DNA of 64,000 nt from Paraspadella gotoi (GCA_051294375.1 CM119267.1:24048111-24112110); one strand, 5' to 3'. Positions 1 to 60,698 are shown, numbered from the stretch's first letter. The notes: a model not told the origin generated them from the letters alone. A program made the numbers and translations.

Positions 1-1960
1 AGGAGACAAAGGAGACCAAGGGGACAAAGGAGAAAAAGGGGATCAGGGAGATAAGGGTAACCAAGGGGACAAAGGCAACCAAGGAGATAAAGGGACCAAG
101 GGGACAAAGGAGAAAAGGGAGATCAAGGAGAAAAAGGTAACCAAGGGGACAAGGGTAACCAAGGAGACAAAGGAAATCAAGGAGATAAGGGTGAAAAAGG
201 AGATCAAGGAGATAAAGGAAATCAAGGGGACAAGGGCAATCAAGGAGACAAAGGGACCAAGGAGATAAAGGTGAAAAAGGAGATCAGGGAGATAAGGGAG
301 ACCAAGGAGATAAAGGCAATCAGGGAGACAAAGGAGATAAGGAGATAAGGGAGAAAAAGGAATACAGGGAGATAAGGGTAACCAAGGAGACAAAGGGGAA
401 CAAGGAGATAAAGGAGAAAAGGGATATCAGGGAGAAAAAGGTGTTCAAGGTGACAAGGGGAACCAAGGAGATAAGGGGAACCAAGGAGACAAAGGTGAAA
501 AGGGAGATCAGGGAGACAAGGGAATACAGGGAGAAAAGGGAGTTCAAGGAGACAAAGGGGAACAGGGAGACAAGGGTGAGAAGGGATATCAAGGAGATAA
601 AGGAATGCAAGGAGTTAAGGGTGACCAAGGAGACAAAGGGGACCAAGGTGACAAAGGAGAAAAGGGAGATCAGGGAGACAAGGGCAACCAAGGAGACAAA
701 GGCAACCAGGGAGAGAAAGGAGACCAAGGAGACAAAGGTGAAAAAGGAGACCAAGGAGACAAGGGCAATCAGGGAGACAAGGGTAACCAAGGAGACAAAG
801 GGGACCAAGGAGATAAAGGTGAAAAGGGTGATCAGGGAGACAAGGGAGATCAAGGAGACAAGGGGAACCAAGGAGACAAGGGGAATCAAGGAGACAAAGG
901 TGAAAAGGGAGTCCAAGGAGACAAGGGCAACCAAGGGGATAAAGGAAATCAAGGAGATAAAGGTGAAAAGGGTGATCAGGGAGAAAAGGGAGTCCAGGGG
1001 GACAAAGGTGACCAAGGAGACAAAGGAAACCAAGGAGACAAAGGTGAAAAGGGAGATCATGGAGATAAGGGTGGCCATGGAGATAAGGGTAACCAAGGAG
1101 ATAAAGGCAAGCAAGGTGACAAAGGAGATAAAGGTATGCAGGGAGATAAAGGAGACCAAGGAGATAAGGGAGTCCAAGGAGATAAAGGGGAACAGGGAGA
1201 CAAAGGCGATAAAGGAATGCAGGGAGATAAGGGTGAACAGGGTGACAAAGGGAATCAAGGAGATAAGGGGGAACAGGGAGACAAAGGCGATAAAGGAATG
1301 CAGGGAGATAAGGGTGAACAGGGTGACAAAGGGAATCAAGGAGATAAGGGGGAGCAAGGTGACAAGGGCATTAAAGGAATGCAGGGAGAAAAGGGTACTC
1401 AAGGAGACAAGGGGACTCAGGGAGATAAAGGAGACCAAGGAGACAAAGGTGATAAAGGAATGCAGGGTGATAAGGGCAACCAAGGCGACAAGGGAGTACA
1501 AGGAGTCAAAGGGGACCAAGGAGACAAAGGCGAAAAGGGTGTACATGGTGATAAGGGAGCTAAAGGTGACAAGGGTTTGGAAGGAGACAAAGGAAAACAG
1601 GGTGACAAGGGAGTGCAAGGTGATAAAGGTAATCAGGGAGAAAAGGGTATGCAAGGAATGCAAGGTGATAAAGGTGAGAAAGGAATGCATGGTGACAAGG
1701 GTGTCGCTGGAGAAAAAGGTGAACAGGGAATGCAAGGCGCTAAAGGAGATAAGGGACACCAAGGAAACCAGGGTGTTAAGGGAGTCAAGGGCGATCAGGG
1801 GGCTAAGGGAGAACAGGGAATGCAGGGCCAAAAGGGTGACAAAGGAATGCAAGGAGCAACGGGCTTACAGGGTCCTCAGGGATCACAGGGACTTCAAGGT
1901 GAAAAGGGTGAGCATGGACATAAAGGCGTTCAAGGAGACAAAGGACCTCAGGGTGAACAA
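1..1960 (+). repeat. Collagen-coding 9-bp-period repeat (GDK/GDQ/GNQ/GEK/GMQ triplets), about 650 aa in one exon
   Basis: Continuous Gly-X-Y in ORF 605-2026 and upstream. Three single-base deletions near 92, 253 and 339 shift and then restore the frame. Confidence 0.95.
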
Positions 1961-4900
1961 GGCGGTCGACCCATCTACTACTTTTCACGTAAGTTTCTGT
2001 ATTTTTTTGATCAATATTTTCTATAATGCAATTTTAATATGAGTTTATTTTTATATATTTATTAAGTTTAAAGAAAAATATTTTCCTGAATGACTGACTT
2101 TAGGATAATAAAGATACATGTACAAATTACTGCAGATATATTTTTGTCATATTTTGTTTTTTTTTAAATTATTTTACTTGATGCGATAAACCTTTCGTTT
2201 TCGTTGTTGTTATGATTTAGAGAAAAAACAAAGTTTTTAATTGTGTTACAACGAATTTAATTAGAGATACGGACATGTTTCGGCTCACATTTCGAGCCTT
2301 CATCAGCGTTTGATGAAGGCTCGAAATGTGAGCCGAAACATGTCCGTATCTCTAATTAAATTCGTTGTAACACAATTAAAAACTTTGTTTTTTCTCTAAA
2401 TTATTTTACTATAATTTTTTTATACTAAAAGCCATGAATAGCGATTTTAATAAATGACATAAACAACATCAAAATTCGTTATAAATTATTGGGATCATTA
2501 TTATTATTATTATTTAAAAAAGAAATTCTAAATGACAAAAGCAAATCAAAATCATGACATATTTTTAAAACTTTGATAAGAAAAAGTTGTTTAATAATCT
2601 GAATACAAGCCGCATTGAATTATTTTTCTTCTTTAAATAACTTAATAATTAATGCATCTTTTCACAACACTTCTCTTTGTAGGCTTGGGCCACGTTTCCT
2701 CCGTGGCTTATCTTCCCTCCTTCAGTGTTTGCACAGTCACTAATGGCGTCGTTTCCATGTGCACTTACCTTCGTGATGACAACAAGATGGTGACAGTCAA
2801 CGATCCTTCCACTGTCTTTAAAATATATAAAAATGTAACAACAGAGACGGGACTCTGCACCACTCCTACTGTCACCTATGCCAATGTAAGAGAGTTAAAA
2901 TGATTAAAATATTCTAATTACTATTTTTCTATAAATTTTGTCATTTTTTTTACATTTAGGTGGCAGACTATCGCGTTAATGGAATTGTGAAATTTAATCA
3001 ACCAAGACCTACAAACGCAACAGCAAGCAATCATGACTTGATTCGCATCTGTTTCAATGTCAATGATTGCGCAGAAAACGTGAGTGTGCTCAGTGAACTG
3101 TGAAGCTTCTGAAGTTTTTCACATCAATGATTATTGATTAAATTACCTTTTTATTGCCCCATCAGTCGACTTACACCCCTGCGTCCAGTAACTACTTCGC
3201 TCCCGACCATGTGCTGCCCGCCTTTGTCTCTGGCGTCAAAATCCTTGACAGCACACCTGGAATTACAGATGCGCAAAAGAAGAGAGAACTTAAATGCGCT
3301 TTCAACACCATCGCCGAAGGATCACTCAGCGTGGGCATGAGTGGCAACTTCTTGGACAGTATTTTGCCTTCTAACCTCACCATCACAATTGAGCTCTTCA
3401 CGAACAATAACCAACGTGAGTAGTCGAGTGAATCACGTAAACAAGGGTATTTTTGATTGGCCTTTTTTTTTGCACATTAAGAGATCAATCCTTTCAATTC
3501 TTCTTTACTTATACAGCTGCTGGATCTATTATCACTCTTGGACAAAACTATCGCCTGAGAATATCATTAGACCAAGCCGCAGCTTTTCACCATGATTACT
3601 ATATTGCTTTGGTCCAAGTTACCGTCGCTGACAACCGTGAATTCATAGGCGCAACTCAAGTTGATCTGGTTCAAAGCGGTGAGAACATATTATTAAAAAT
3701 GAAAATCATTTATACACTTAAAATAAGTGGTTGATGCTACTTAGCTAAGACTCTTCCATTTTAAAACTAACATGGTCAGTTTGAGTATGAACTTTTTCGG
3801 AATATAGAAATGATGAGATAGAAATGAGAACCATATCAAAGTTCAAATCATGCCTTGACTAAAAATGAGTTAAGTCAGGTTTTGGAATCTTGGGATGATT
3901 TTATTGTCATGCTAAAGTCATGAACTGAAAAAAAGTCAGTCTCTTCTTATGAAGGATAAGACAGTAAATGATGCCATTTTTGAATAAAAACTAAAAAAAC
4001 ATATCATTTAATTAATACATCTTAAAACTGGAAATTTAAAACAGATACCGGAAAGGTTAACTGCCTTGCAAACTCTGGATTCTTCACTCAAAATTCAATC
4101 ACAGCGATCTCGGGAAAATCGGTGGAACTCTTATTTCAATCTTTCAAAGTAAAAAAAATATATTCATTCTATGTATATTTAATTTGTATTGTAAAAATTA
4201 TAATCTTTTAATTTTAATATAGAATAAATTACTGATCTGTCTGAACCAATCTAATCCTAATCTGTCTTTAAAAACAGTTCCTTCAACAAGCTGGAACGAA
4301 CATTTACATCAAGGCCACAGTGGCCATTTGCTTCAAAGATAAGACCAAGTGCCAAGCGATTTGCCCGACGACAAATAGAAGATCTGGCATCGACGATGAC
4401 AGCGTGAAGAAAGAGTCTGTCTTGCCCATTTATATCGAAGACAAGGCTGCCCGCTGTCCTCAACAGGTTTGGAAGAGAGATTTTTTTATAATCTGCATTT
4501 GGCAACCACTAGTAGTTCAATAATTCCGCTACCTGCATTCAAATTTGATCGAATCTCACAATCAATTAAATTAAATTTAATTTGCTTTTCTCTCAATCTC
4601 TAGGGCGGTATTAATCACGGAGCGACCGTCTGCTCGAACGGTACCCTTCCAAACTCCGAATGTACTCACTCTTGCGAGAAAGGATTCATGAATATCGGCG
4701 AACTGGAACAAGTTTGCGAGACCGGGTACGAGACGCCCGGCGGCGGTATCTACTACGGACTCTCGGCGCGTTGGAATCCAGAGGGTCAACCCAAATGCGA
4801 GGGTAAGGTTTATTCATTGAAAAAAAAATGCTTGCTCTCTTTTTTAAAAGCGCCCCGTTTCTGCCCCTGATAATAACAATATTAATTAATAATTATAGTA

Positions 4901-5425
4901 ATAATAATACTGATTAATGATACATAAAATTTTGATTATTTAATTACCAGACGTGAATGAGTGCCGACAGGCACAGTCTCCATGCCATCCGACACAAGTC
5001 TGCTTCAACAAGGATGGATCGTACGAATGTCGCTGTCCGAGCAATACGGACTGGCGAAACGGAAAGTGTCAGCCCAAAAAGTCAGCGGTGATGAGCATGA
5101 GAGCGACGAAGCGGAACTTCACCAATGACCTTCACGATAGAACCTCGGAGGCTTTTGCCAAAGAATCAGCTGCTTTGACTAATGAGGTAAAAAAAGAAAA
5201 GACTTGAGCGTCATTCCGCAATTTTTTGTTAGTTTGTATCGGATCACTATTTCAAGACTGATGCCTGGAATGTTTTAATATACAACTTAGCTAAATCTTT
5301 TGAAAAAAAATAACTGGTTGTCAGGGAGGAGGGTAAGTAGGCATAGTTTAGCCTTTTATTTGTTTAAACATTATTACATGATTTAAAATCATTACACTTT
5401 AATCTCTCTCGTCTCTCTCTCATCC

Positions 5426-5470
<45 letters not shown>

Positions 5471-6242
5471 GCAATATCTATACCAATCTATACCAAAGTC
5501 ATATTTTAATTAAACGACTAAATATTTCGATTCAGCTCGCCCCGCTCTGCGCCTCCGCCTTGGACGCCCCTTGGACAAAGATAACTGTCCTCGGTCTCCG
5601 CCCCGGAAGCGTCATAGTTGACTTCCGCCTCGAGGTTGGCGCCACTGTCGCCAATCAAGACATCGACGCGGACGAATTAGCGAAGAGAATCAGATTCCAG
5701 ATCGAAACGTCGAAAAATGAGTTTGGATTCGACCCCACCTCAATTCGGGTTGTGGGTAAGTCTGACGGGAAAGTTTAGCAGGGATTTAAATTGGGTTAAG
5801 GAAATTTAGACTCGTTTGTCTAAAAATTCCCCATTTCCCAGACCCGGACGAGTGCCTCCTTCCCTCGACCCACGACTGCCACGCCCACGCCACGTGCGTC
5901 AACGAGAAACTCACCTTCTCCTGCGTCTGCAACGCTGGATTCGACGACGCGGGCGACGTCCGCGGAAAGGGACGCGACTGCGTCAAGGTCGACGACAAGA
6001 GCGACGTCTGGCGAGCGATCGCGGGCGTCAACGAGACGTTCGACGCCGTGGGACGTCGCGTCGATGTCAACGAAGACGACATCGCCTCGAACAAAGGGGA
6101 AATAGATTACATGTTCGATTCGTCGACGATAATGTTCGCCGTCGCCTTCGTCCTCATATTCTGTCTGCTCGTTGTTCAAGTCGTCAAGTTCGTTCGTAGC
6201 AGAAGAAAGGACGGGCACAACGCCTACATGAATTCGGTTTAA
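1..6242 (+). CDS. Multi-exon type I membrane protein: collagen (Gly-X-Y) - ZP-N/ZP-C - CCP/sushi - cbEGF - SEA - cbEGF - coiled coil - TM - short tail; 5' end outside the window
   Basis: Phase-consistent GT-AG exons: <1-1988, 2683-2885, 2960-3079, 3166-3415, 3517-3678, 4045-4148, 4278-4466, 4604-4802, 4951-5186, 5536-5755, 5842-6242 (TAA), with AATAAA at about 6253. Motifs: ZP-like ITDAQKKRELKCAF, LFQSFKF and IYIKATVAICFKDKTKCQAIC; sushi CPQQ..NHG..C..ECTHSCEKGF..W..PKCE; DVNEC and DPDEC EGF repeats; SEA LRPGSVIVDF; TM IMFAVAFVLIFCLLVVQVV. Confidence 0.88.
2215..2401. mobile_element. Perfect palindrome (91-bp arms, 5-bp loop), probably an inverted Penelope-like element terminal-repeat remnant
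   Basis: 2215-2305 is the reverse complement of 2311-2401, with loop GCGTT. It contains a hammerhead motif followed by an AT-rich tail, as in PLE pseudo-LTRs. Confidence 0.75.
2267..2311 (-). ncRNA. Minimal type I hammerhead ribozyme
   Basis: The minus strand reads AAACG-CTGATGA-AGGCTC-GAAATGT-GAGCC-GAAAC-AT-GTC-CGTAT: intact CUGAUGA/GAAA core, 5-bp stem II, palindromic mini stem III with GUC triplet, and ACG/CGT stem I. Confidence 0.75.
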
Positions 6243-32341: not shown

Positions 32342-35039
32342 ATGAAATGCACATTGCAAAATTATCCAATTCTACTCCAATTCAACCTCCACTCCAAGAA
32401 ATACAGAAAAAAAAAGACAACCAATCAAAGATTTATTAATTAATTTATAATTTATTCATTATTTATTAAATGAATGGATAATTTTATATTGTTTTTACCA
32501 ATTTTAACTAAAACATAGACGCGACCACAAGAGACAGACTTACCCGTGCTGTAGACCTTAGTGCATTCTTGCGTTTCCACTTTCTTGTCGTCTTTCTCGA
32601 TCAAGACGTACATCGGAATCTCAGTCTCCTCAGACAATTCAACCGGATTTTTGTCGGCGAAACGAAAGACAACGTTTTCTGTGTTGTACCCGTAAGATTC
32701 CACTTTGAAGCCGCATTGCTGGGACAAGCCGAATGGGGGGGGGGTTGTAATTTGGTGATAATCGTGGTAATAATGATGGTATTAATCATAGTTATAATCA
32801 TGTGCTAATGATGGCAATAATCAGGGTAATAATTTTATTAATCTTTAGTAATCCATCATCGTAATAATTTTAATAATCCTGGTAATCATGGTAATTAACT
32901 TGATAATAATCATGGTAATGATTTGGTAATAATATGGTAATCTTTGTAATCATGGTAATTATCATGACAATAACAATTTGGTAATAATCATCAAACATGG
33001 TACTGAAAAACATGTATCACCAGACGGACGGACGGATATTCGCATTGAGAGATGGATACAATAATACAAAAATATAACAACGGACGTGGAGATTAATTAA
33101 TAACGAGACAAACCAATTTTTAGGCATGATTAAATAGCAACACAATCTAACTGGGAGTCAACCAGACAGAGAAACAAAAGAGAAAACAGAGACGGGCAGA
33201 CAGACAGACAGACCGACTGACGAGGTTTCCGATTTACCTGCGAATCGAAAGGAAATCTGGCCAATGACATCGCGCAGGAAAGAGTGAGAGTGAATCTTTG
33301 GCTGAGAAGAACTTCACCGTTCGAGGCGATGCGGATGTATCTGTTGGGCTAAGAAAGGGATCGGATTGGGCTGAGATCAGAATTGGGTTGGGCTGAGATC
33401 AGAATTGTGTTGGGTTGAGATCAGAATTGGGGTGATATTAAAAAAGTCCCTCGCCTACTAATCTAATCCTGAACCTTGATCCTTATCTTAATCCATAAGC
33501 TAATCCTTAATTCTAAAAAAATAACTTAATAATTCCAAATATAGTATGAGATTAAAAAATAAAGTTCCGAGGGGGGCTGAAGTAAAAATCTGAAAAAAAA
33601 ACCTTACCTATGAAACTAAGGGATTCTTACTCAGTCTAACTCACCTGGGTGATGGTGTGTAGTTCTCCCCGCTTCTCGTTACTGAAGAACAAATCGGGAT
33701 ACCAAATCTTGTCGACGAATTTGGGCGGAACGACGACAGATCCCGTGAAGTTGTGCTTGAGTCTCGCGTCCACCCAACGCTGTCTGTTGGAGGGTGATGG
33801 AGTTGATGGGGATGATGATAATAATACTACAACAATTTTATTGTAAATTAATCAATATTTTTATAGATTGATTACAAGTCATGACATTGTATAAGATTTC
33901 AAGGGAGTGAGTCAGAGATATTTGGTAAAATCTTAATCAAAATAAAATGCTAAAAGTTAAATGCCTTTACATAAAACTATTTATCTAAATTAATCTTTTA
34001 TTCAAAAGTAGCAATATAAATAAGTTAATGGGAGTGAATAAACAAGACTGTGAGAGAGTCTTGATTGAAAGCTTGGAGGGACCTGCTAAGTTATTATCTT
34101 GTAAGAGTGATGGAGGCCTTAAACCACCAACGCCTGTCCAAAGTCGGGGGCAAGATAGCTTGTTTATTAAATGAATAGATAATTTTTAAATTGGTTGTAC
34201 CAACTTCATATAATAAATGATATATAAAAACATTATTTCGTCGATCATTGTAATCCTTTTTAGAATCGGCTAAAAGATAGAATAGAAATAAACTGCTATG
34301 TTATTAAACCACCAAGGCCTGTCCAAAGTCAGGGGTAAGATAGCTTTGCTATTAAAGGAATGGATAATTTGTTTGTACCAATTTCCTAAAGTTATAAAAA
34401 TTAACCTCAAATAAATATCGATTGTGAAATCCATATTTGATTCTGAAATGGAAGTTAATGAGGCGACGAAAGCGTTAATGACGATTTTAACTGGACTCGA
34501 TCCATCGTCGGGTCGAACGCGTGCGTCGTAGGTTTTGGGGTCTAAAAATTGTTAAAAGTATATTACAATTTAATTCTATCATTGTAATTGTTTTCTTGAA
34601 TTTTGCCTTCAGTCGGCGTGATGGTTTCGAGATAACTTTTTGTTTCTAAATTACAGTTAAAACTATTCTTTCTTTTTCTTTTTTTTCTTTTCTTTTTTAT
34701 TTTTCTTTTCTTTTCTTTTTTCTTTTCTTTTTTTTCTCTTTTCATTTTCTCTTTTTATTTGTCTTTTTTTTTTCTTTTCTTTTTTCTTTTATTTTCTTTT
34801 TTTCCGTTTCTTTTCTTTTCTTTTTTTCTTTTCTTTTCTTTTTTTCATTTTTTTCTTTTTTTTTCTTTTCTTTTCTTTTCTTTTCTTTTCTTTTCTTTTC
34901 TTTTCTTTTCTTTTCTTTTCTTTACTTTTATTTTTTTTCTCTCACCTAGCAACGCGTTCATAATCTTCGTTTTCTCCGAGATAGAAGCATCACAAGTCAG
35001 TGAAAGGAGTAAAACAAAGAAACAATACAAAGGCGCCAT
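31326..35039 (-). CDS. Cys-loop ligand-gated ion channel subunit, glycine receptor/GluCl-like (signal peptide to M3; M4 exon not located)
   Basis: In-phase exons: 35039-34946 (MAPLYCFFVLLLSLTCDA), 34541-34406 (YDARVRP..SISESNMDFTIDIYLR), 33783-33645 (QRWVDARL..IWYPDLFFSNEK), 33348-33238 (PNRYIRIASNG..LSCAMSLARFPFDSQ), 32718-32544 (QCGFKVESYGY..ECTKVYSTG), 32117-31903 (AFTCL..YIPSFMIVVLTWFGLWI..M2) and 31448-31326 (VAYIVALDVWM..LETTFV). Confidence 0.92.
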
Positions 35040-55821: not shown

Positions 55822-58371
55822 TAATCTCTCACCCACCGGAGTGATCTGAGGTTCGCCTGGCAATTTTCCACAAGATCCCGAACCTACGACGTTTTTTCCG
55901 TACATCCCTTTAGCAGGAAGCGTGAGATCGGGAGCTACCTGTGGTTGTTGTGTTATTGTTGATGTTGTTGTTTTAGATGTTGCTGTGGTTATTGATGTTG
56001 TCAGTTTTTTCTGACGGTAAATAGTCCAAGCAACAAAATCTTAGTTTTCAAAATTTCTTATTCAATCTATTTATCTTAGAATCAATCTAGTATTGTTTGT
56101 TATAATGATTTTTGTTATTGTGCATCTGTATCATTGACTTGATATGAATAAAAGCACCTCATATCTAAAGAACGTGGGCGGCATCGGACATTCGTAGTCG
56201 AGCCAAAAATCTAGATGCTCGATCCGCCCGACGAACGGGCTGAAGACGATGTCGGCCGTTTTGCCCGTCACTTTGTCCACTTGCACAGTTTTTTCGGGCT
56301 GAGACCCCAACACGTAGAAGGGCTGTTTGATCGGGTCCGCGGCTTGCGCCGTCTGGGGGAATGCGTTAAATTCATTACGATAATAATTATCGAGAATTAT
56401 ATGTAGATCTGTGGATAAGGCGCTACGTGGGCTGAAGATGACTGTCCGTAACTCTATAACCCCCTCTAGCAGCCATGGAAACGGGTCCCTGGGCTTGGAA
56501 CCAGGCTTGAGGGTTTGCCATTCCCCCAAGGCGCTTACGGCCGTCCTCACGCTTCCCGCAGGGTAGGTACCGGGTTCAATCCCAACCCGGTACCTAGTGG
56601 TCATGAGCTGATGGCTTTCCTCAATGAGCCACCGGGTCACAACTGAAAGTGTCATGATTCTAGGCGGGGTGAACCTAGGCAATGCCCGACTACATGCCCC
56701 CCAGATTGTAACCCACCCTGCACTGCTTCCAGTGGAGGAGGGGAGCAATCTTCAGCTAGACCAAGGGCCTGGAATCAGAAGGTTGGATACGCTCGACAGG
56801 ATGGGCTCACCAGTGTGGATAAGGCGCTACGTGGGCTGAAGATGACTGTCCGTAACTTCTATAACCCCTCTAGCAGCCATGGAACGGGTCCCTGGCTTGG
56901 AACCAGGCTTGAGGGTTTTGCCATTCCCCCAAGGCGGCTTACGGCCGTCCTCATGCTTCCCGCAGGGTAGGTACCGGGTTCAATCCCAACCCGGTACCTT
57001 GTGGTCATGAGCTGATGGCTTTACTCAATGAGCCACCGGGTCACAACTGAAAGTGATTCTAGGCGGGGTGAACCTAGGCAATGCCGCGACTAACAGATCT
57101 ACAATCTCCAAACGAGTATAATCCATATTATTTACCATTATAATTAATGTATTCGTGCATCAATATGTATCATTACTTGATATGAATAAAAACACCTCAT
57201 TATACTGCCACCGACTGAGAATTTTCTTTTTATCCCATTTTCATTTTGACTTAACTTCAATCAATTCAGATTTTTACCAATAATTCATTGGCCAATCAAA
57301 TTACCCTTTGCTTGATCATGTACTGCCCGAATTTCGTTTTTTCCAGTTTTCCATCTTTGGTCCTCACGTTGTGAAAGGCCAAATAACCGGGCAGCTTTGA
57401 CTTGTCCGCCTTCCTCAGCGAACCTGGAAGGACATCAAAGTTTTTTAAATATTTTATAATTTTATTTTAATATATATTTATATTTTAAATTTCGTTATTT
57501 ATAATTCATGAAATCCTTTTACTAAAACTCTTCACCTCACTTCTCTATTTAGTTCTCAATTTAGTTCCATCCATTCCCATAGCTCCACTTCACCGATTCA
57601 CTTCACCCCAGAATCCTCACTTCACCATATTTTACTATTTCACTTCGCTTCACCCCAGAATCCTCACTTCAGAATTTCATATCACTTTTGCCAATAGCCT
57701 CATCTAACTCACTTTATCATATTACTTCACTCACTTCATCAACTTCCTTCACTCCGACCAAATATCATCATTTTATCATCTCACTTCAAATTCTCCATCT
57801 CAACTCACTTCAATTACTTCGCCATCTCAACTCACTTTACTCACGTCGCCATTTCACTTCACACATTCTCCATCTCAACTCACTTCGCCATCTTATTTCA
57901 CACATTCTACATCTCAACTCACTTCACTCACTTTGCCATCCCACTTCACTCACTCCTAAGATCGTGATCGACTTTGGCGCAAAACAAAAGTCGAGTTGAT
58001 TTTCCTCGCGGAATCGAAATCTCGATTTTTCGACTCACGAATTTTTTTCTCATTTCTTCGCTTGTGAAATTGTAATCGGCGGGAACGAACCTGATTGGTT
58101 GAGAGGACGAGAGTTGATGAGTGTGATTGGTCGATTGGGGTGGATAGTCATTAGTTGAAAAAATTACAATGATTATTGCCAAAATAGCTTCTTTGTGAAA
58201 CATAAAAAACCGAAAGGGTTCGATGATAACTCAATAACTAACATAAAATTACTTTAATAGTTGTAAATCATGTTTGTTTGTCCATAATTTATGTACCTCT
58301 CTGTAAAAGTATGTATTGTTAATTTGTTGACTGTCACATTTTTGAGCATATTACCATGAATCAAATAAAAA

Positions 58372-60481: not shown

Positions 60482-60698
60482 CGTCGTTGTCCTCGTCGTC
60501 GTTGTCTTTTCAAATATATGATTGCATTTTGTTCTTCTGTTTCAAATTTTTAATACTTAACGCGTTGAAAGTAAAACTCGATGGGAAAAAGAGAAGATAT
60601 TTTTTGGAATCGAAAATCTTTAGAACTGAAGTGGAAGGTTAATTACGATTCTGATATCTATCTATATATCTATCTATATATCTATATATCTATATATC

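Follow-up and report, generated by a model that had tools for sequence, protein, structure and literature searches.

A non-coding LTR element and a related solo LTR

On the minus strand of the window, by which we mean the whole 64-kb stretch of DNA that was analyzed, lies a complete non-coding element of 686 bp with two ~285-bp TG..CA LTRs and a GATC TSD, and a solo LTR is found in the same window. Comparison of the LTRs, the ends, and the flanks confirmed this anatomy, which had been described previously from a reading of the sequence alone (the sequence-only reading).

57095-56410, minus strand: full non-coding LTR element of TRIM size (LTR, TSD, and end comparison)
57095-56814, minus strand: 5' LTR, 282 bp, TG..CA (sequence comparison)
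56694-56410, minus strand: 3' LTR, 285 bp, TG..CA (sequence comparison)
57096-57099 and 56406-56409, no strand: the two copies of the TSD, GATC (flank comparison)
56812-56797, minus strand: PBS-like site with a TGG start, the TGG lying 1 nt past the 5' LTR
56702-56697, minus strand: short PPT (G6), 2 nt ahead of the 3' LTR
60982-60699, minus strand: solo LTR, 284 bp, with GATA at both sides

The internal region between the LTRs is 119 bp. A 12-nt internal stretch of the element may be tRNA-Trp-like. By eye, the best match of the PBS-like site was tRNA-Trp (9 of the first 10 positions and 12 of 16 overall) within a comparison set that consisted of the tRNA 3' ends printed in Fig. S2 of Kojima 2024 (PMC10886601). 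The site is a candidate tRNA-primer binding site, and the PPT is made up of G6 only. The GATA flanks of the solo LTR sit within a GATA tract and are weaker evidence for a TSD. The target sites at 56406-56409 (GATC) and 60695-60698 (GATA) share a GAT start, which might reflect a target preference of the integrase (n = 2 sites).

Alignment of the full copy's two LTRs shows 3 substitutions and 9 indels (8 single-base). Judging from the likeness of its LTRs, the full copy appears to be a young insertion, and the pattern of differences may include assembly errors. The copy is inserted in the sense orientation within a predicted intron, with open exons at 57305-57421 and 56157-56352 that have AG/GT ends on either side. 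Nearby exons have matches to glycine/GABA receptors of animals and to calcium-binding EGF domains, which identifies the host as an animal. When one exon of the window was used as the query of a protein search, no match was found. Other features of the window are as follows:

216-2039, plus strand: 608-codon open frame with 9-bp repeats and Gly-X-Y triplets (collagen-like), with no Pfam match at E 0.001
2212-2404: inverted repeat of 94 bp, nearly perfect, with 5 nt between the arms
4944-5204 and 5790-6239, plus strand: exons of a calcium-binding EGF protein
33133-33851, minus strand: exon(s) of a glycine/GABA-type Cys-loop receptor

Thousands of Logan contigs from four runs matched the element, 6,803 of them in run X1. 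Run X10, a biofilm metagenome (5 contigs), was left out of the family comparison, and all read depths are sums over contigs, not copy numbers. Because ~100 contigs run from an LTR end into unrelated flanks (99-100 leave the LTR at 56694 and 56 at 56814) and there are thousands of contig matches, the family is both dispersed and abundant. The TRIM layout that had been proposed for the element is supported by the pair of TG..CA LTRs, the length of less than 1 kb, the TSD, the many dispersed copies, and the solo LTR. No reverse transcriptase or integrase was detected among 146 ORF pieces (of 170 candidates) in the 64-kb window, and a search of JGI metagenomes with an exact LTR 21-mer yielded 0 matches.

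A circularly permuted twister motif in each LTR

The sequence-only reading had assigned to the LTRs a twister fold of the P1 type, with P2 formed by AGCC/GGCT and with GAGGG downstream. A twister motif is present in each LTR, but its topology is the P5-type permutation. The fitting L1 partner is a GAGGA located upstream (56952-56948 in the 5' LTR, 56548-56544 in the 3' LTR, and 60837-60833 in the solo LTR), and neither the AGCC/GGCT pairing nor the downstream GAGGG could be confirmed. In the upstream GAGGA register, both irregularities that had been flagged, the shift of UAA and the insert of 4 nt, vanish. The LTR fold is a circularly permuted P5-type twister motif, with upstream GAGGA as the partner and with a predicted ribozyme function.

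56963-56884, minus strand: P5-type twister motif of the 5' LTR (register match), with the predicted scissile U/A at 56941/56940
56559-56481, minus strand: P5-type twister motif of the 3' LTR (register match), with the predicted scissile U/A at 56537/56536
60848-60770, minus strand: P5-type twister motif of the solo LTR (register match), with a private UGA and P4 mismatches
56559-55/56485-81, minus strand: P5 of the 3' LTR motif (register and folding)
56548-44, minus strand: GAGGA (L1) of the 3' LTR motif (register)
56543-38, minus strand: palindrome CGGCCG of the 3' LTR motif (register)
56530-23/56513-06, minus strand: P3 of the 3' LTR motif (register and folding)
56505-01/56492-88, minus strand: P4 of the 3' LTR motif (register and folding)
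56500-56493, minus strand: L4 of the 3' LTR motif (register and folding)

All three copies have the same order of parts, which is GCGGG, AA, 4 nt, GAGGA, C..G, U-A-A (UGA in the solo LTR), 3 nt, GC, P3, P4, UUCCAAGC, P4, and the P5 partner. In terms of the P5 permutation the order is P5, the 3' strand of P2, L1, the P1 region, U/AA with the slash at the scissile step, the 5' strand of P2, GC, P3, P4, L4, P4, and P5. The loop UUCCAAGC, P3, and the T2 GC were present as claimed previously. The spacing from UAA to the T2 GC is 3 nt, but 2 nt (one base short) in the 3' LTR. The conserved parts of L1 (GAGG-N and AA), the L2 GC, and L4 were found, both pseudoknots are pairable, and the 5' LTR has all of these. 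T1 retains three standard pairs, because its U at the second L4 position (C in most twisters) is compensated by an A at the last position of L1 (G in most).

P4 (CCTGG/CCAGG) exists as previously stated, but among the window copies all 5 bp are found only in the 3' LTR, the 5' LTR being one base short and the solo LTR having two P4 mismatches; the 5-bp P4 is also present in ~98% of the read depth (5' strand of P4). P2 pairs at 2 of 3 positions, or at 3 with a bulge, and the P1 region is a loopless 6-nt palindrome, CGGCCG, instead of a P1 hairpin. Each window copy has a private defect, which in the 5' LTR consists of a P2 change at 56954 together with the shortened P4.

Variation within the family

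Contigs were aligned to the solo LTR motif, which provided 47 scorable positions and left GAGGA outside the scorable part. In run X1, the UAA, the T2 GC, P3, the 5' strand of P4, three L4 bases, and the palindrome had ≤2.6% minor letters, and the UAA, the GC, and part of L4 were 98 to 100% conserved in family reads. The TGA of the solo LTR had been listed among the signs of a possible variant or inactive fold; the TGA is there, but, like the P4 mismatches, it is private to the solo copy, and the predicted catalytic A of UAA is conserved in 99.3% of the read depth.

Four sites had more than 5% minor letters. Three are in the 9-nt P3 loop (15, 20, and 44%; Fisher p = 0.019), and the fourth is the first P2 base, which alternates between G and A. 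Both of these letters pair with U in the P5 register, whereas A breaks the P2 AGCC/GGCT register. Among 40 of 140 variant rows, the unpaired P2 base at 56551 was variable (7-28%), and at 56962 (4-17%) a C-G pair of P5 became U-G. The low variation of the core may partly reflect recent descent, the family being young and the depths being summed over contigs.

Similarity to other twisters

A search with Rfam yielded a partial match to Twister-P5 with 19.8 bits (E 0.43), which is below the threshold of 37.6, and there were no gathering-level twister matches in the 64-kb window. The element had no Rfam hammerhead match up to E 10. A hammerhead reading of the GAGGAC..GCC hairpin was rejected, as it has no CUGANGA or GAAA core.

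Two covariance models were built from natural P5 twisters. Model R1, from 41 of 49 distinct viral twisters with a 4-bp P2 (7 near-duplicates and 1 likely chance match were dropped), ranked the 3' LTR at the top of 15 matches in the window (E = 0.0046) and matched the other two copies at the loop only. Model R2 was built from 39 of the 45 distinct twisters whose P2 is 3 bp (6 near-duplicates dropped) and had the three LTRs as the top three of four matches (E = 8e-6, 0.0055, and 0.055), with the solo LTR aligned in another register; this model is partly circular, as the element itself supplied its training pattern. A relaxed descriptor, which like model R2 was shaped after the sequence had been inspected, matched all three copies. 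In 300 Mb of Markov sequence with the composition of the window it matched 10 loci (0.004 per window), and in 300 Mb with the composition of the element it matched 113 (2e-4 per LTR). A strict descriptor had 0 matches in 200 Mb of null sequence and matched 0 of the 3 window copies.

When viral and metagenome contigs were scanned with a 4-nt P2 pattern, a perfect P2 with a paired P4 was found in 44 of 124 GAGGG loci and in 17 of 120 GAGGA loci; in these 17 viral loci, the T1 U-A pair of the element occurs naturally. A scan with a 3-nt P2 detected a perfect 3-bp P2 in 55 of 85 GAGGA metagenome matches and in 53 of 131 GAGGG viral loci, and this P2 covaries, with many types of compensatory pairs. 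The Rfam Twister-P5 threshold was exceeded by 7 of 8 sampled natural loci, including five GAGGA loci with a 3-bp P2. Twisters with a 3-bp P2 were at least as common as those with 4 bp (110 versus 55 distinct well-formed P5-type twisters, loci L248-L540, in scans uneven in size); reviews give P2 as 4 bp. A single 9.9-kb metagenome contig (Ga0194131_10012484; L394-L396) carries at least six tandem 3-bp-P2 twisters, ~540-1150 nt apart.

The P1 spacer was 15-33 nt long in 164 of the 165 distinct well-formed natural P5 twisters and 7 nt in the other one (L101). That viral twister (L101 / L595), with perfect P2 and P4 and a 7-nt P1 region, is below the Rfam threshold and is a candidate for a nearly P1-less twister. 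An exact short-P1 spacer like that of the element had 0 matches in the genome scan, and a palindromic short P1 was found in none of 60 viral and 119 genome pattern matches, 4 of the 60 and 2 of the 119 passing loosely. A 19-mer from P4/L4 matched two viral loci, which were rejected as twisters by eye.

According to PMC5408937, P1 is dispensable for twister catalysis, and the same paper cites a suggestion that changes in P2 length could disrupt the active site. Imperfections in P1, P2, and P4 are reported to be tolerated, but errors in the pseudoknots are not (PMC11662667, PMC5113685), and ~94% of tested twister candidates were active (PMC11662667).

A tRNA-like head upstream of the twister

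A tRNA-like head, absent from the sequence-only reading, precedes the twister in each LTR.

56638-56567, minus strand: tRNA-like head of the 3' LTR, with an A-box-like TGGCTCA and with CTCATGA in anticodon-loop register
About 57042-56971, minus strand: tRNA-like head of the 5' LTR, the same as that of the 3' LTR
60927-60856, minus strand: tRNA-like head of the solo LTR, in which the B box GGTTCAATCCC faces forward and lies exactly 45 nt past the A-box T

Reading on from TGGCTCA, the solo head has a C-T-N-N-N-G-A loop, which falls on tRNA positions 32-38, and then GGTTCAATCCC. The boxes TRGCY and GGTTC are at tRNA spacing, the A box being without the usual YGG, and this is the only such A/B pair in the window (chance, 2e-4 per LTR). 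The full copy differs in that both its LTRs carry the B-box loop in inverted orientation, within a 13-bp hairpin (56596-56564 in the 3' LTR). Comparison of the 7-nt hairpin loop at 56583-56577 and 56987-56981 of the full copy with that at 60873-60867 of the solo LTR shows it to be flipped, which reverses the B box. Two forms of forward B box, GGTTCAATCCC and GGATCGATCCC, occur in the loose-end reads.

The element has neither a T4 run nor an AATAAA, and the first T5 is 201 nt downstream. ARAGORN found no tRNA in the window, lowered thresholds giving mostly hairpin artefacts, and Rfam did not call the tRNA-like head a tRNA. The LTR head is likely a tRNA-type (Pol III) promoter, and its A and B boxes together with the 4-bp TSD in an animal match the design of Helenus / TRIMp3 elements (PMC10886601).

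Folding of the motif and of the unit RNA

Unconstrained folding of an 81-nt piece of the 3' LTR returned P5, a P2, P3, and P4 with an ordinary energy (z, -0.6), and the motifs of the 5' LTR and the solo LTR folded partly in other ways; both pseudoknots are omitted from these energies. With transcription from the tRNA-like start, the probability of the twister helices was ~0.7-0.8 just after P5 and <0.15 about 8 bases later. With the internal region upstream, the twister of the 3' LTR was disfavored (P5, ≤0.04), and 6-8 kcal/mol was needed to force it. These calculations are compatible with a brief co-transcriptional window for cleavage and a blocked mature RNA, but also with poor activity.

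The fold of the 404-nt RNA that would lie between the predicted cleavage sites was ordinary (z = -1.0; 15 of 100 shuffles were as good), unlike the highly stable units of plant retrozymes. Two copies of the palindrome pair at -16.3 kcal/mol versus -0.4 kcal/mol for one alone, and forcing the duplex between the LTRs in the whole transcript costs 1.4 kcal/mol in a calculation that was made without a control.

Possible function of the element

In our judgment, which is only slightly better than even, the element is likely a Pol III-driven, twister-based LTR retrozyme of an animal, with a circular unit of 404 nt. The observations behind this reading are the anatomy, the many dispersed copies, a motif in the P5 register with family-wide conservation, a head with A and B boxes, and the lack of a T4 run. 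Against it stand the folding that disfavors the twister in the 3' LTR context, the sub-threshold Rfam score, the loopless P1, the P2 mismatch, the private defects, the inverted B box, the sense insertion in an intron, and the ordinary stability of the unit.

As a retrozyme, the element would be transcribed by Pol III, beginning at the tRNA-like head and reading through. The 5' twister would be complete in the transcript because the Pol III start lies at the head, and the 3' twister would be transcribed complete because there is no Pol III terminator. Cleavage by the twister at U/A in both LTRs (56941/56940 and 56537/56536) would free a 404-nt RNA, a unit that had already been proposed and that is supported here as a prediction.

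56940-56537, minus strand: predicted 404-nt unit RNA, which would hold the PBS, the PPT, and one LTR equivalent

A host ligase would then close the 404-nt RNA into a circle, on which a helper Gypsy-type reverse transcriptase, primed by a tRNA, would regenerate two LTRs. Cutting at both sites would leave the RNA without the terminal repeat that ordinary strand transfer needs, and the two LTRs would therefore be regenerated from a circle or multimer. Copying of a circle to regenerate LTRs has been proposed for plant retrozymes (PMC4918200, PMC7761336).

The unusual P1 region might have a role in this process. In a domain-swapped dimer, the two LTR ribozymes could complete each other through their loopless palindromic P1, and only transcripts with two LTRs would be cut to the 404-nt circle. 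The idea is suggested by the perfect palindrome in the exact P1 register, as for the hammerheads of Penelope (PMC6765202), and we consider it improbable.

The imperfections of the motif could instead mean that the element is an ordinary Helenus-type TRIM whose twister has decayed and lost its activity; the motif would have arrived along with an ancestral SINE-like head and would persist because the family is young. The loopless P1, the P2 mismatch, the sub-threshold Rfam match, a defect in every window copy, and the sense insertion in a predicted intron fit such decay. However, the variants that reach high frequency are in a loop or preserve pairing, the predicted catalytic A is nearly invariant, and natural twisters tolerate imperfections of this kind, most tested candidates having been active (PMC11662667). 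We regard decay as unlikely, but as deserving real weight.

Another reading accepts an active twister but limits its action to trimming a linear RNA at a single end, most likely the 5' one, where the head would be removed. Ordinary LTR strand transfer would then proceed onto the intact 3' LTR of the read-through transcript, and no circle would form. In the folding calculations, the twister is favored directly behind the tRNA-like start but loses out when the internal region precedes it; 5'-end trimming by twisters is known from Perere-3/RTE non-LTR elements (PMC8501958; PMC7761336); and a circle of the unit would have no special stability. Yet the same motif is in both LTRs, the 3' copy would be fully transcribed for want of a Pol III terminator, the folding leaves out two pseudoknots, and plant hammerhead-LTR elements of the same layout make circles (PMC4918200). 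On these grounds we think trimming of one end improbable.

We give very little credence to the P1-type register, with P2 AGCC/GGCU and downstream GAGGG, as the active fold. The relaxed descriptor permits P1-type matches too, and the downstream G-rich tract is retained in divergent loose-end reads. Nevertheless, the register needs an insert of 4-5 nt, has no P1, puts a U.G in T1, and is broken by the frequent G/A alternation of the first base of P2; it has a single A before P2, and a 1A variant did not cleave in PMC8501958; and the corresponding 91-nt piece folds as a long hairpin instead. That the twister resemblance arose by chance is hardly credible: the Rfam E value is only 0.43 and the relaxed descriptor and model R2 were shaped after the sequence was seen, but the null rates of the two descriptors and the model R1 match argue against it.

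Comparison with known systems

The element is real in sequence, and its ribozyme function is predicted. If the retrozyme reading is true, the strategy of LTR retrozymes, a ribozyme-cut circular RNA that borrows Gypsy enzymes, extends beyond plants and can work with a ribozyme other than the hammerhead, and a link is made between Pol III TRIMs and retrozymes, which have been described separately. Eukaryotic twisters would have a second biological role besides 5' trimming in RTE elements, and viroid-like circles that bear twisters would have a genomic source. In a literature search that covered few subscription journals, no report of a twister in LTRs or of an animal twister LTR retrozyme was found. 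In the portions of these sources that were available, a 2026 preprint (bioRxiv 10.64898/2026.07.22.740005) describes LTR retrozymes as carrying type III hammerheads, mainly in plants; PMC13725137 ties twisters to retrotransposons only via the Schistosoma work; and PMC8501958 finds 1.6% of twister variants upstream of LTR-type reverse transcriptase domains, without placing them in LTRs.

As a ribozyme motif, the element shares the order and spacing of GAGGA, C..G-U-AA, 3 nt, GC, P4, and UUCCAAGC with members of Rfam Twister-P5 (RF02684), in particular those with a 3-bp P2 and a U-A pair in T1 (such as L284, L340, L366, and L377). In those members P1 is a true hairpin, P2 pairs perfectly, and the score exceeds the threshold; in the element, P1 is replaced by a loopless palindrome, P2 has a mismatch, P3 is long, and the score stays below the threshold.

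The twisters of Perere-3/RTE in Schistosoma are likewise weak-P1 twisters of an animal retroelement, but they are of the P1 type and occur singly, at the 5' terminus of an autonomous LINE, with no LTRs and no unit-length release (PMC8501958). Metazoan non-LTR retrozymes and Penelope-like elements (PMC7761336, PMC6765202, bioRxiv 10.64898/2026.07.22.740005) also use pairs of ribozymes to bound a few hundred bases in animals, and their dimeric type I hammerheads have a short palindromic stem that needs a dimer, as the palindrome of the element may. Unlike the element, they have hammerheads, are found in tandem arrays, and, as these sources present them, have no LTR, PBS, or PPT.

Helenus TRIMs / TRIMp3 (Kojima 2024, PMC10886601) share with the element a length of <1 kb, A and B boxes in the LTR, a 4-bp TSD in animals, a PBS, a PPT, and a presumed Gypsy helper. 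In contrast to the twister motif of the element, no ribozyme is described for them in the accessible part of that paper, and the twister loop motif had 0 matches in its Helenus consensus file, in which line breaks can hide some. In Data S1 of the paper, Helenus-2_SyJa-LTR and Helenus-2_SyUm-LTR, from gall wasps, show by eye a full type III hammerhead directly after the tRNA-like B box, with a CUGAUGA..GAAAC core and complementary loops I and II, which the main text, as available, does not mention. These two are candidate animal hammerhead LTR retrozymes, with the layout of the element and another ribozyme.

Much is shared, too, with plant LTR retrozymes (Cervera, Urbina, de la Pena 2016, PMC4918200), which are also non-coding, with a ribozyme in each ~300-bp LTR, a PBS, a PPT, a 4-bp TSD, and solo LTRs, and in which the ribozyme is predicted to be blocked in longer RNA, as is the case here. 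The plant elements have a type III hammerhead, a tRNA-Met PBS, and highly paired circles of 600-1000 nt that have been shown experimentally (PMC4918200). The element described here, known from sequence alone, differs from them in its P5 twister, its animal host, its tRNA-like head, and its 404-nt unit of ordinary stability.
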